A stretch of DNA of 32,000 bases from an uncultured Alphaproteobacteria bacterium (GTDB lineage Bacteria; Pseudomonadota; Alphaproteobacteria; Rs-D84; CACZYB01). The translations under genes were made by a program, and so were the position numbers. The notes beneath the pieces are model-generated. The model did no database searches, was not told the origin of the DNA, and saw only the letters and a list, made by a program, of their open reading frames with translations. The number at the start of each line of letters is the position of its first letter. Positions within the stretch are counted from its first letter, which is position 1. Where the stretch lies: positions 1 to 32,000 of the forward strand of contig CAKQHZ010000002.1 in NCBI GenBank assembly GCA_934246625.1, given 5' to 3'. Of the stretch, positions 5,118 to 7,605 are shown piece after piece.

Positions 5118-6194
5118 ATGAAATGGGTAAAACAACAACAAAACGCAATTACATCAATCGAAACTTTATCAAAAAAATTTCCGAAATATAATATTGCGAA
5201 ACAAACAAACTTTAATTTAAAAATCACCCCTTACTATCTTTCATTGATTGATAAGGATAATCCAAACGACAAACTTGCAAAAATAGTTATTCCCTCATCA
5301 AAGGAATTAAATATAAAACCCGAAGAACTTGACGACCCAATCGGAGATAAAACAAAAAACGAAGATTTAGATAATTCTCCTGTAAAGGGACTTGTTCACC
5401 GCTATGACGACCGTGTATTGATATATATGGGAAATGTTTGCAGTTCATATTGTCGTTATTGTTTAAGAAAAAATATAATCAAAAATACACCAATAACAAA
5501 AAAGGATATTGAAACAGCAATAAATTACATAAAAAAAACAAATGTAATAAAAGAGGTAATTTTAAGTGGTGGCGACCCACTTATGAATTCTGACGAATTT
5601 TTGTTTGATACAATAAGGAAAATTGAAGCAATTCCGCATATCAAAGCAATTCGAATTCATACAAAAATGCCAATTTACAATCCATTCAGGATTACAAATG
5701 ATTTCATAAAACAAATCAAAACTATAAAAAAGCCACTTATAATAATAATTCACGCATCACACGAACGCGAACTTACAGATATAGTCAAAACAAAACTTAA
5801 AAAACTTCAAAAATGCGGTGTAATACTTTTAAATCAATGTCCATTACTAAAGGGAATAAACGACACCATCGAAGAACAAACAAAACTTGGCTACAGACTT
5901 CAAGAATGTGGAGTTTTGCCACATTATCTACACTATATTGATTTGGCAAAGGGCACATCACATTTTCGTGTTCCATTAAAGGACGCAAGAAAACTTATGA
6001 AAGATTTACGTGGACACATAAGCGGACAACTTATACCAAAACTTATACTTGATATACCAAGTGGATACGGGAAAATCCAACTTGAAGATACATTTATAAA
6101 GGAAATATATAACGACGGGAAAAATACCTTTATCAAAATTCAAAGTCCAAATATCAAGAATAAAATCCTAACATACAAGGAAGTTTTGGAATAA
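5118..6194 (+). CDS. KamA-family radical SAM protein (lysine 2,3-aminomutase / EpmB-like)
   Basis: 358 aa. Radical SAM cluster motif CSSYCRYCLRK, SGGDPL, and N-terminal ITPYYLSLID typical of the KamA family. AAGGAG Shine-Dalgarno upstream. Confidence 0.88.
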   Translation: MKWVKQQQNAITSIETLSKKFPKYNIAKQTNFNLKITPYYLSLIDKDNPNDKLAKIVIPSSKELNIKPEELDDPIGDKTKNEDLDNSPVKGLVHRYDDRVLIYMGNVCSSYCRYCLRKNIIKNTPITKKDIETAINYIKKTNVIKEVILSGGDPLMNSDEFLFDTIRKIEAIPHIKAIRIHTKMPIYNPFRITNDFIKQIKTIKKPLIIIIHASHERELTDIVKTKLKKLQKCGVILLNQCPLLKGINDTIEEQTKLGYRLQECGVLPHYLHYIDLAKGTSHFRVPLKDARKLMKDLRGHISGQLIPKLILDIPSGYGKIQLEDTFIKEIYNDGKNTFIKIQSPNIKNKILTYKEVLE

Positions 6195-6206
6195 TAAAAT
6201 TCCTTC

Positions 6207-6235
6207 TTGCAAAAATCAATTTAAAAATATATAAT
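6207..6235 (+). promoter_or_regulatory. sigma70-like promoter upstream of the structured region
   Basis: TTGCAA (6207-6212), 17-nt spacer, TATAAT (6230-6235). Confidence 0.65.
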
Positions 6236-6241
6236 AAACCT

Positions 6242-6448
6242 CGGATAAGGCAAAATCCTTATCTGGGGTCGTAGAAAGCCTCTAGTAGATTGCTTGTAGT
6301 CATATCAAAATGCTACATTCTAAAACTCAGTCTGGGATTCAACCTTTGGGTTGGATATCGGCTGAATAAGGTATTGGCTGAATAAGCCGAGCCATAAATC
6401 TACATGGTTTTCTAATATCCACCCCTTACAAAAGCTAAGGCTTTTTTT
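6242..6448 (+). ncRNA. candidate structured RNA (riboswitch-like 5' leader or independent ~205-nt ncRNA), class not recognised
   Basis: Visibly GC-enriched relative to its flanks. 5' hairpin 6243-6250/6257-6264. A three-segment long-range helix (6265-6269/6421-6425, 6273-6280/6406-6413, 6285-6290/6398-6403) encloses hairpins 6295-6300/6312-6317, 6337-6344/6349-6356 and 6358-6363/6385-6390. A weak hairpin 6424-6428/6436-6440 plus T7 follows. The only ORF here is an implausible antisense one. Confidence 0.5.
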
Positions 6449-6470
6449 ATAACTAAAGGGAGGAAAAACC

Positions 6471-6908
6471 ATGAACAAATCTTTTATCTTTAGTTGTTTA
6501 TTTTGTGCAACTATACCTTTCAACACCTCGTCCTTTGCAAACGAAGGATATGGAGCTTACCCTGGAGGAGGCACAAGTTATACAACTTTTCCAACCAACA
6601 CAATATCCGAACTTACAAAAGTTTTACAAAAATATTGTGTTCCAGATAATGCCTCAGTTTGTAATTCCAAATATCAGGCAACTTTTAATGAAAGTTTCAA
6701 CACGTGTGAATGCAAAAGCTGTGGACTTTTTTATAACAAAAAAACACGTCTATGTGAACAATGTCCAAAGGGAACATACACAACCGACCGACACTCTTCT
6801 GAATGTTTAAAAATTGATTGCGGTGGCGGTTATCGTGTTGTTTTAATGGAAGACACAGAAACTTGTCCAAAAGGTTATAAAAAAATCAAAGTATCAATAT
6901 GTAATTAA
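6471..6908 (+). CDS. secreted cysteine-rich protein, paralog 2
   Basis: 145 aa. GGGAGG Shine-Dalgarno upstream. Signal peptide ending in SSFA|NE. Contains CEQCPKGTYTT and ETCPKGY. 11 Cys after the signal peptide by my count. Confidence 0.75.
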   Translation: MNKSFIFSCLFCATIPFNTSSFANEGYGAYPGGGTSYTTFPTNTISELTKVLQKYCVPDNASVCNSKYQATFNESFNTCECKSCGLFYNKKTRLCEQCPKGTYTTDRHSSECLKIDCGGGYRVVLMEDTETCPKGYKKIKVSICN

Positions 6909-6913
6909 AATAT

Positions 6914-6982
6914 GGGTGGAAGTTTTTTTATCATAGTCTTTGCTTCCACCCTCCCAAAAGCACTTATTGGGGAAAGTGCTTT
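6914..6982 (+). other. two perfect 9-bp stem-loops in the paralog 2 - paralog 3 spacer
   Basis: GGGTGGAAG (6914-6922) pairs with CTTCCACCC (6943-6951) around a 20-nt U-rich loop. AAAGCACTT (6957-6965) pairs with AAGTGCTTT (6974-6982). Confidence 0.6.
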
Positions 6983-7013
6983 GATAAATTATTCACCCCA
7001 AAAGGAGACCATT

Positions 7014-7466
7014 ATGAAAATAAATACTATACTTGCAATCGGAACATTACTTTATCCACAAATTGCAAAAGCAGACTTATATAAATGTGAACTTTGCCCT
7101 GCTGGAACCTACAGCGATGGTAAAAGTCTTGAATGTTCAAAATGTCCAGTTGGAACCTATTCAAACAAAAGTGGTGTATCATCTTGCACCCCTTGCACAA
7201 ACTTTCGTCCTGGTTTTTCTCACTATACAACAAGTGGTGGCACAAAAAATGAATGTGCTTGGAGTTGTAATGCTGGCCTTATTTACACATCTAGCAATGC
7301 TGGGGGTTGTTGCCATGAACCTGCTACCCCAAACCATAACTCCTCATCACCAAAAACATGTAAAAGAGAAGCCATTTGCAGAAGTTATTCTGGAACATTT
7401 TTATGGTCAATTGGAGGCGGTGCCTGCACTCCTCTTGGTTCAAAAAAATGTATTGAATACAACTAA
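7014..7466 (+). CDS. secreted cysteine-rich protein with CxxCPxGTYS repeats, paralog 3
   Basis: I chose the start at ATG 7014 (AAGGAGA Shine-Dalgarno 6 nt upstream), not 6912. Signal peptide MKINTILAIGTLLYPQIAKA|D. Contains CELCPAGTYS, CSKCPVGTYS and AGGCC (shared with paralog 1). 14 Cys by my count. Confidence 0.8.
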   Translation: MKINTILAIGTLLYPQIAKADLYKCELCPAGTYSDGKSLECSKCPVGTYSNKSGVSSCTPCTNFRPGFSHYTTSGGTKNECAWSCNAGLIYTSSNAGGCCHEPATPNHNSSSPKTCKREAICRSYSGTFLWSIGGGACTPLGSKKCIEYN

Positions 7467-7499
7467 ATACTCCCCTCCTTTGAGGGGAATTTTTTATAC

Positions 7500-7528
7500 T
7501 TGCAAAAAGAAGCGAATCGTGATAATAT
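7500..7528 (+). promoter_or_regulatory. sigma70-like promoter inside repeat copy 2
   Basis: TTGCAA (7500-7505), 17-nt spacer, TAATAT (7523-7528), identical to copy 1. Confidence 0.6.
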
Positions 7529-7534
7529 ATAAAA

Positions 7535-7605
7535 CATAGACATTGAGAATAAGAAACAAACAACTCTTTGAAAGGCTGATTACCTTTAAAGGGATTTTTT
7601 ATTTT
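7535..7605 (+). ncRNA. candidate ~70-nt sRNA, copy 2
   Basis: Same promoter, A-rich body and terminator hairpin as copy 1. The next gene downstream is convergent, so this promoter has no mRNA to drive. The one a/t difference (7544) lies in the single-stranded part. Confidence 0.5.

Follow-up and report, generated by a model that had tools for sequence, protein, structure and literature searches.

A leader RNA family with a c4-like domain and two competing folds upstream of exported-protein genes in gut Alphaproteobacteria

Introduction

Two described RNAs come closest to the element reported here: the c4 antisense RNA of phages P1 and P7, and sRNA-Xcc1, an 88-nt small RNA of Xanthomonas campestris. 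The a′/b′ segments of c4 pair with upstream a1/b1 and downstream a2/b2 sites, and some c4 P1 stems overlap terminators (Weinberg 2010); the c4 precursor is an RNase P substrate, going by the title of Hartmann 1995 (cited in PMC4919922). Here we describe an element at positions 6242-6448 (plus strand) of a 32,000-nt stretch of DNA from an uncultured alphaproteobacterium (contig CAKQHZ010000002.1, positions 1 to 32,000; hereafter the window), in the leader of a gene that we call p2. Sequence comparison suggests a leader of roughly 190 nt for host surface-protein genes, in which a c4-like domain is fused to its own upstream pairing partner. We lean towards the reading that this leader of the p2-p3 operon is a cis-acting transcription attenuator built on a c4-like scaffold.

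In the family to which the element belongs, the 3′ half aligns to all 87 model positions of sRNA-Xcc1 in 19 of 20 copies tested, and it shares with this RNA an outer helix around two hairpins, the conserved GCCG.../...CGGUUU..GA.C segments and a ...CC(A/G)CC tail. Unlike sRNA-Xcc1, the family is roughly 190 nt long, because an additional 5′ half is present and pairs with the Xcc1-like part; its hosts are gut Alphaproteobacteria, not Xanthomonas, and there it occupies the 5′ leaders of exported-protein genes. With c4 it has in common the three-helix shape, in which the second hairpin is backed by covariation, the position upstream of a candidate target gene, and upstream complementary partners in the same transcript, where the 5′ strands of helices P2 and P3 correspond to the c4 a1/b1 sites. 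It differs from c4 in having neither an a2/b2 target at the ribosome-binding site (RBS) nor a prophage context, and in that its upstream partner is built into one compact fold with three extra hairpins (P4-P6). A conserved, structured 5′-leader domain in which an intrinsic terminator draws on the 3′ strand of the closing helix also recalls terminator/anti-terminator riboswitches and attenuators, and RBS sequestration is possible in most family copies; unlike members of that class, the family matches no curated riboswitch or leader family, its gene set suggests no ligand, and its alternative fold is a large c4-like refolding instead of a simple anti-terminator hairpin. We file the element neither as sRNA-Xcc1 nor as c4, because its scores lie below the thresholds of both and the a2/b2 target and phage context of c4 are missing.

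Results

A folded leader RNA between a promoter and p2

An initial annotation, made by a model from the letters of the window, had proposed a promoter, a very long leader and an unclassified riboswitch or noncoding RNA at this site. In a consensus scan the promoter (6207-6235, plus strand) matches 10 of 12 sigma-70 consensus positions. Matches this good are common by chance in the window (18 observed against 13.7 expected in shuffles), yet the placement of this one relative to the conserved core is family-typical, with 30 nt between the end of the -10 hexamer and the core (family median 29.5 nt, range about 22-30 nt). The leader is indeed long, with 235 nt (6236-6470) between the -10 hexamer and the start codon, ATG at 6471. 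Its plus strand folds with a minimum free energy of -82.3 kcal/mol, compared with -51.9 ± 4.2 kcal/mol for dinucleotide shuffles (z = -7.17), and none of 200 shuffles folds as well; the minus strand folds much less well (z = -2.85). Positions 6242-6448 (plus strand) encode a genuine folded RNA of roughly 205 bases, which bears out the noncoding RNA proposal. The features of the window copy are as follows.

6207-6212 and 6230-6235 (+): promoter, TTGCAA and TATAAT with a 17-nt spacer; consensus scan, predicted function
6242-6265 (+): P0, 5′-terminal hairpin CGGAUAAGG / CCUUAUCUG, stem 6243-6250 / 6257-6264; minimum-energy fold
6265-6269 (+): P1 5′ strand GGGGU, pairing with ACCCC at 6421-6425; minimum-energy fold, candidate anti-terminator helix
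6272-6281 (+): P2 5′ strand UAGAAAGCC (strand alpha), pairing with 6406-6414; minimum-energy fold and family covariation
6285-6291 (+): P3 5′ strand GUAGAUU, pairing with AAUCUAC at 6397-6403; complementarity test and covariation
6295-6317 (+): P4 hairpin UGUAG.CAU / AUG CUACA, stem 6295-6303 / 6310-6317; minimum-energy fold
6327-6365 (+): P5 hairpin, stem including 6337-6344 / 6349-6356; minimum-energy fold
6364-6393 (+): most conserved block GAAUAAGG, then P6 hairpin (6370-6379 / 6385-6393, loop GAAUA)
6348-6428 (+): c4/sRNA-Xcc1-like domain, alternative fold; isolated-fragment fold, double changes in the window copy, sub-threshold family hits
6348-6358 / 6415-6425 (+): P7, alternative fold
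6359-6363 / 6385-6389 (+): hairpin 1, alternative fold
6390-6395 / 6404-6409 (+): hairpin 2, alternative fold
6397-6403 and 6406-6414 (+): 3′ strands of P3 and P2, respectively; minimum-energy fold and covariation
6415-6425 (+): shared 3′ strand AUAUCCACCCC; partners are the P7 5′ strand (6348-6358), the P1 5′ strand (6265-6269) and, via CCACCCCUU, the RBS
6430-6448 (+): weak intrinsic terminator, U tract 6442-6448, alternative stem 6424-6428 / 6436-6440; minimum-energy fold
6457-6473 (+): RBS AGGGAGG (6457-6463) and ATG (6471), from sequence; the RBS pairs with 6419-6427 in a longer fold
6471-6908 (+): gene p2, 145-amino-acid cysteine-rich protein with a signal peptide
6912-7466 (+): paralogue p3, following p2

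Much of the pairing drawn in the initial annotation reappears in the minimum-energy fold: the 5′ hairpin, the interrupted long-range helix (6265-6269/6421-6425, 6272-6280/6406-6414 and 6285-6291/6397-6403), for which relatives show compensatory changes, and two of the three junction hairpins (6295-6303/6310-6317 and 6337-6344/6349-6356). The third, 6358-6363/6385-6390, is absent from this fold, in which 6374-6379 pairs with 6385-6390; it belongs to the alternative c4-like fold, as its hairpin 1. Two segments serve twice, since the 3′ half of P5 (6348-6358) doubles as the P7 5′ strand and strand alpha (6272-6281) has a second complement in the terminator 3′ arm and U tract (6438-6446). The window c4-like domain ends in a UUA tail. 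The near-duplicate noted within 6360-6388 is real, with GGCUGAAUAAG at 6360-6371 and again at 6377-6388, and the reported GC enrichment is there but modest, at 0.38-0.40 inside the element compared with 0.23-0.33 just upstream.

The predicted weak hairpin followed by seven T residues corresponds to a weak terminator, AAAAGC/GCUUUU (6430-6445) or CCUUA/UAAGG and then T7 at 6442-6448; a terminator scan of the window did not list this hairpin and U tract (6430-6448). Read on the minus strand, the P0 region (6236-6270) followed by UUUAUUAUAUAUUUUU resembles an intrinsic terminator, and nearby on that strand we saw neither a promoter nor a gene to make use of it.

The annotation had also found no known RNA class, which holds at formal thresholds and misses a resemblance of the 3′ half to sRNA-Xcc1 and c4 that falls short of them. 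In Rfam 15 (4227 models, among them tmRNA, 6S, SRP, RNase P and the known riboswitches) the window gives no match to the element at the gathering threshold, only tRNAs, and at E ≤ 10 the window copy yields nothing credible, including no sRNA-Xcc1 or c4 match; ARAGORN found no transfer-messenger RNA (tmRNA) in the window. GGGGUCG...CCACCCC could suggest a tmRNA or a tRNA-like end, a reading that we rejected because it lacks both a G3-U70 pair and a terminal CCA, neither ARAGORN nor Rfam supports it, and P2 already takes up the strand.

A family of leader RNAs in gut Alphaproteobacteria

The comparison of orthologous spacers proposed in the initial annotation has nothing to act on, as the nearest relatives carry no spacer at this site, and homologues were sought elsewhere in other genomes. 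A sensitive blastn search of phage records returned one match, MT836653.1 ('Bacteriophage sp.', human faeces), whose matching region (locus L010, 560-760) has the same architecture with other helix sequences (z = -6.4). A 21-base pattern from the shared block recovered 38 loci in species-representative genomes, several of which carry two or three copies, and a second pattern added 97 loci from metagenomes; nhmmer then gave a count of 134 full-length copies, with 70 distinct sequences. The 38 loci bear the titles Alphaproteobacteria, 'uncultured Azospirillum sp.', 'uncultured proteobacterium', 'Pseudomonadota' and Candidatus Scatocola (Rhodospirillales). The sources are guts of human, chicken, deer, sheep and others, including rumen, and every named genome is an alphaproteobacterial metagenome-assembled genome. 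Plasmid and viral contig collections gave no family matches.

A profile from which the window sequence was left out has a single match in the 32 kb, at 6266-6428 (E = 9.1e-19, 61.8 bits). With the lowest nhmmer score (77 bits, compared with 102-164 for the other copies), the window element is, on sequence similarity, a divergent member, and the most divergent known copy, of a real leader family of roughly 190 nt. The family is apparently undescribed: 18 family loci matched only tRNAs and no leader family at the Rfam gathering score, and we found no description in the searchable literature. The family's sequence motifs do not occur in the first 200 of the 408 supplementary files of Fremin and Bhatt 2021.

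Copies share a constant layout of promoter, variable 5′ hairpin, P2-P6 core, intrinsic terminator, RBS and gene, which reads, 5′ to 3′:

Promoter: often TTTACA-17-TAATCT, ending about 22-30 nt before the core
P0: 5′-terminal hairpin in essentially every copy, unrelated in sequence between copies
P1 5′ strand: AGGGCG
P2 5′ strand: UCGAAAACC
P3: hypervariable in sequence
P4: hairpin, then an A-rich linker
P5: hairpin with GGACGGAUGUCGGC at its end
Junction: GAAUAAGG
P6: hairpin, loop AAAUAA
3′ strands of P3 and P2: ACGGUUUUCGA
Shared segment: ACAUCCGCCC
Terminator: CCCGCC...GGCGGG UUUUGUUU
Gene start: RBS and ATG, 10-25 nt past the terminator

The window fold places P0, P2-P6 and the terminator at homologous positions with a same-strand gene downstream, the start of which lies 25 nt past the end of the family-profile match (~6445).

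Several copies have unusual surroundings. MT836653.1 (locus L010, 'UNVERIFIED: Bacteriophage sp.') carries the leader RNA followed by an 890-amino-acid autotransporter gene and is probably a gut alphaproteobacterial contig mislabelled as viral. Locus L045 holds tandem whole units including the promoter (5989-6156 and 6293-6467), and L030 a partial copy and then a full one (1978-2069 and 1716-1899); in both, the tandem copies differ from each other in P3 sequence. At L020 (about 1625-1352, minus strand) an upstream RNA copy is interrupted in the hairpin 2 loop by an insert of ~270 nt and an intact copy follows; the insert resembles a miniature inverted-repeat transposable element (MITE), with 18-bp inverted repeats GACCTTAAGTAACCTCCC ... 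GGGAGGTTACTTAAGGTC at its ends.

Covariation supports the minimum-energy fold

State A is both the minimum-energy fold and the RNAalifold consensus, and its conservation was assessed in an alignment of the 70 distinct sequences. In this alignment 96.8% of cells are paired (slid controls 27-44%), and 94 cells carry double changes compared with 33 in shuffles, a number reached in 0 of 500 shuffles. P2 covaries at three pairs (CG 41 / AU 25; GC 46 / AU 19; AU 47 / GC 19). P3 occurs with at least 31 different 3′ strands, each complementary to its own 5′ strand; cognate duplexes average -8.8 kcal/mol and non-cognate ones -2.5 kcal/mol (p = 1e-22), and P3 differs even between copies inside one genome. 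Double changes fall at 3 of the 5 pairs of P4, P5a pairs at 98% across the family, and the terminator covaries at one pair (GC 42 / GU 15 / AU 11). Judged from these substitutions, covariation supports P2, P3, P4 and the terminator. The abundant G-U pairs in P5, P6 and the terminator identify the plus strand as the RNA. In P1, GGGC/GCCC is invariant, and the sole changes are those of the window itself (GGGGU/ACCCC).

An alternative fold resembles c4 and sRNA-Xcc1

The 3′ half can also adopt a second structure, state B, in which an outer helix P7 (GGACGGAUGU with ACAUCCGCCC) encloses two hairpins, UCGGC / GCCGA (hairpin 1) and GCCGU / ACGGU (hairpin 2), with the P3 3′ strand as the loop of hairpin 2. 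Across the 70 sequences its pairs are kept at 95.8% overall (P7 92%, hairpin 1 99.7%, hairpin 2 98.3%). At one pair of hairpin 2, 63 sequences have G-C and 5 have A-U; no sequence truly breaks the pair on one side, and the five changes appear independent because each A-U sequence has G-C nearest neighbours. RNAalifold offered a pairing of GACGG with CCGUU, which we rejected since it fits 2 of the 5 changed sequences as opposed to 5 of 5 for hairpin 2. The window copy retains P7 through two double changes (GGUUGGAUAU / AUAUCCACCC) and hairpin 2 through one (GCCAU / AUGGU). As an isolated 3′ fragment, state B is the minimum-energy structure in the window and in 2 of 3 other copies.

Because hairpin 2 has the P3 3′ strand as its loop, and no more than 0-2 nt link this loop to the hairpin 2 3′ strand, hairpin 2 should exclude P3; by the same geometry, a single pseudoknotted structure holding both was rejected, as such a linker would be too short for a P3 of 8-11 bp. 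The family thus appears, from its sequences and this geometry, to maintain two mutually exclusive structures. The nucleotide sharing between terminator and long-range helix on which the initial annotation had based mutually exclusive structures also holds family-wide.

Resemblance to known RNAs is consistent and sub-threshold. A consensus-like copy (L015) scores 36.7 bits (E = 4e-5) with sRNA-Xcc1 (RF02221; gathering score 53) and 29.5 bits with c4 antisense RNA (RF01695; gathering score 45). In a second Rfam search 19 of 20 copies match sRNA-Xcc1 across the full model at 30-35 bits; over all family copies scored, the range is 29.8-36.7 bits, under the membership threshold of 53. Family copies carry RCC after P7, as c4 does; this tail is the sole hint at processing of the kind that c4 undergoes, in which RNase P cuts a longer precursor down to about 77 nt. 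They also have the c4 type of upstream a1/b1 pairing, the hairpin 2 loop and the following GGUUUUCGA being complementary to upstream P3 and P2 strands with strong covariation. No second same-strand complementary site of the a2/b2 type was found at the downstream RBS or elsewhere in the loci, and copies are no more complementary to their own downstream regions than to those of other copies (-5.4 versus -5.5 kcal/mol).

The leaders precede exported-protein genes

More than 90% of copies keep a constant spacing and orientation relative to the next gene, with the ATG 16-65 nt 3′ of the U tract on the same strand. Among the 66 open reading frames (ORFs) downstream of distinct copies, 56 encode exported proteins: 35 lipobox lipoproteins, 15 with other signal-peptide-like N-termini and 6 type IV pilin-like. 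A domain scan of 36 distinct downstream proteins gave PEGA (7), the LEPBI_I2678 family (5), DUF3244 (4), autotransporter beta-domain (2) and GT2 glycosyltransferase (1). Neighbouring genes at the family loci are chromosomal housekeeping and envelope genes. Leader-peptide attenuation was rejected: the short ORF in GGAUGUCGGCGAAUAAGG... is out of frame in several copies through a 1-nt indel (CGGC-G vs CGGCUG).

A strand-exchange model for transcription attenuation

The comparison establishes the family, its two folds, their mutual exclusivity and its location upstream of exported-protein genes; attenuation, and which state is ON or OFF, we infer. The attenuator reading draws on the position of the gene, which has no room for a promoter of its own and stands behind a conserved terminator in competition with conserved alternative helices. 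Throughout the family the shared P1/P7 3′ strand overlaps the terminator 5′ arm. The segment ACAUCCGCCC(GCC) has several potential partners: the terminator 3′ arm, the P7 5′ strand, the 5′ GGGC(G) strand (via GCCC, forming P1) and the RBS (via ACAUCC). The P2 5′ strand AAAACCC can pair in every copy with either of two segments, GGUUUU within P2 or GGGUUUU, which comprises the terminator 3′ arm and the U tract; the latter pairing (alpha:delta) is kept in the window through two double changes (AGAAAGCCU / AGGCUUUUU). The ACAUCC, an anti-Shine-Dalgarno (anti-SD) element, is complementary to an RBS GGAUGU in 44 of the 70 copies, and 6 more have GGAUGC. Energies predicted for three consensus-like copies rank the states:

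State A with terminator: -79 to -81 kcal/mol
State A with P1: -74 to -75 kcal/mol
State B: -52 to -68 kcal/mol

As state A with the terminator has the lowest predicted energy, termination would be the default. In this ground state the 5′ half would pair with the 3′ half through P2 and P3 and close a junction with P4, P5 and P6, leaving ACAUCCGCCC (AUAUCCACCCC in the window) free to form the terminator with the downstream G-rich arm; transcription would stop and a short RNA would be released. Read-through would need ACAUCCGCCC to be captured, either by the 5′ GGGC(G) strand as P1 or by the internal GGACGGAUGU strand as P7. With P7, the 3′ half would refold into the c4/sRNA-Xcc1-like shape of P7 plus two hairpins, and the freed P2 5′ strand AAAACCC could find a new partner in GGGUUUU, the terminator 3′ arm with its U tract. 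The switch would then be a four-strand exchange between P2 plus terminator (state A) and P7 plus alpha:delta (state B), and in most copies P7 would also take the anti-SD ACAUCC off the RBS GGAUGU. What shifts the balance may be a small ligand, a protein, a c4-like RNA released by processing, or processing itself.

Several observations weigh against this reading. In the full-length RNA, state A with the terminator is favoured over state B by a predicted 12-28 kcal/mol; state B is therefore not expected to form spontaneously and would need a helper, cleavage or removal of the 5′ half. P1 shows no covariation across the family and hairpin 1 none either, and the double changes in P7 are confined to the window copy. 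Some of the conservation seen in the P5-P6 block is a product of the search patterns. The downstream gene set, heterogeneous exported proteins, holds no hint of a ligand or signal. The window RBS lacks the GGAUGU element, and where other family copies have a strong terminator the window has its weak one at the homologous position, such that the window copy may read through constitutively.

Alternative readings

The P2-P6 junction might instead be the aptamer of a small-molecule or second-messenger riboswitch, whose ligand would stabilize P1 over the terminator and turn the gene ON. We hold this to be unlikely, if the foremost of the alternatives. The 5′ untranslated position, the overlap of P1 with the terminator and an expression platform of mutually exclusive helices all fit; the P1 state lies only ~5 kcal/mol above the terminator state, within the range typical of riboswitches; the unpaired junction stretches GAAUAAGG, AAAUAA and CUUAAAA are near-invariant; and genomes carry multiple copies. 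Pilins, an autotransporter, lipoproteins and a glycosyltransferase downstream also resemble the gene sets of cyclic-di-GMP riboswitches. Yet no Rfam riboswitch class is matched, no metabolic or transport theme unites the downstream genes, and the helix that a ligand would stabilize, P1, does not covary; part of the apparent conservation stems from the search patterns, and the hairpin 2 covariation, incompatible with P3, is left unexplained.

A processed antisense RNA of the c4 type, in which a 3′ domain of roughly 85 nt would be excised, as by RNase P with phage P1 c4, and would act by base pairing with the P2/P3 strands as a1/b1-like partner, seems rather improbable. It would account for the full-model sRNA-Xcc1 matches in 19 of 20 copies and the best-copy scores (36.7 bits, and 29.5 bits for c4), for the covariation behind the c4-like fold and its adoption by the isolated domain, for the RCC tail after P7, and for P3 sequences that differ among copies in one genome. 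Known c4 RNA pairs with upstream a1/b1 sites, and its precursor is an RNase P substrate by the title of Hartmann 1995. The scores are nevertheless far under the gathering thresholds, with no Rfam match for the window copy; no a2/b2-like second target lies near the RBS or elsewhere in the loci, and neither a prophage nor an integron context was found.

More speculatively, each copy could have arisen from a c4-like antisense RNA and act as a self-addressed switch, with positive feedback and a heritable ON/OFF state, a notion that we regard as doubtful. Terminated leaders would be self-masked, their 5′ half covering the c4-like loops. Once processed out, a c4-like fragment might pair with the P2/P3 5′ strands, which are specific to each copy, in nascent leaders of its own locus and force these leaders into the anti-terminated fold, yielding more fragment. 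Lipoproteins, pilins and adhesins could then be phase-variable without DNA rearrangement, and the hypervariable P3 would block cross-talk among the copies of one genome.

That the element does not switch at all is quite improbable, whether as a stabilizing, highly structured 5′ leader whose terminator leaks or as a small RNA gene in its own right, linked only incidentally to the gene downstream. A 5′-terminal hairpin, a compact fold, a strong promoter and its own terminator would suit such a constitutive element, as would the tandem copies and the few copies that have no exported-protein gene downstream; against it, two mutually exclusive folds are both kept, terminator overlap and anti-SD/SD complementarity are conserved, the spacing and orientation of the next gene hardly vary (constant in >90% of copies), and there is no space for a second promoter between the U tract and the RBS. 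A DNA-level feature (a repeat, a mobile-element end or a recombination site) is scarcely credible, for although the element is multi-copy, sometimes tandem, once hit by a MITE-like insertion and, in the window, located at a gene-order break, its fold is strand-specific (z = -7.2 vs -2.9), its many helix G-U pairs would be A-C mismatches on the other strand, its promoter and terminator are conserved, P3 and P0 show compensatory changes without sequence conservation, and no transposase or integrase lies nearby.

Genomic context of the window copy

The upstream neighbour is a KamA-like radical S-adenosylmethionine protein, identical in sequence on many human gut metagenome contigs; a protein search of genome contigs with this gene gave no match. 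In its nearest relatives (71-73% identity; loci L005-L007) a DUF3781 gene directly follows KamA with no spacer, so that the leader RNA, p2 and p3 sit at a gene-order break. This block (6195-7466) looks like a lineage-specific insertion or rearrangement relative to those loci. We found no p2 homologues beyond its own 90%-identity cluster, and neither a transposase or integrase nor a prophage or integron context in the window neighbourhood. In six other strains whose flanks are 0.9-1.3% divergent from the window, 6180-6553 shows zero differences, with the spacer 100% identical, and no other run without polymorphism in the 7 kb compared is as long; such invariance points to purifying selection and is uninformative on structure.

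A 141-nt direct repeat, 98% identical, occurs at 779-919 and 7465-7605, each copy following a paralogous cysteine-rich secreted-protein gene (30-779 and 6912-7466), and the second copy contains a bidirectional terminator-like hairpin (7471-7488). The p3 ORF (6912-7466) was probably called too early: other strains encode a 150-154-amino-acid product, and a likely start lies near 7014 (MKINTILAIG..., signal-peptide-like).

Discussion

Gut Alphaproteobacteria of this type are uncultured, and almost nothing is known of their gene regulation. The family described here is widespread in human, ruminant and poultry gut data, with several copies per genome, and precedes genes for host-exposed proteins (lipoproteins, pilins, autotransporters and secreted peptides). 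Its two exclusive folds, each backed by covariation, offer a clean system for the study of RNA strand-exchange switches. Control of host genes by the c4 scaffold had been raised as a possibility, without such an example (Weinberg 2010). If the attenuator reading is true, it suggests that the scaffold of phage c4 and sRNA-Xcc1 has been adopted as a cis-acting switch for host genes, and the leader would be a main control point of surface composition in these bacteria.

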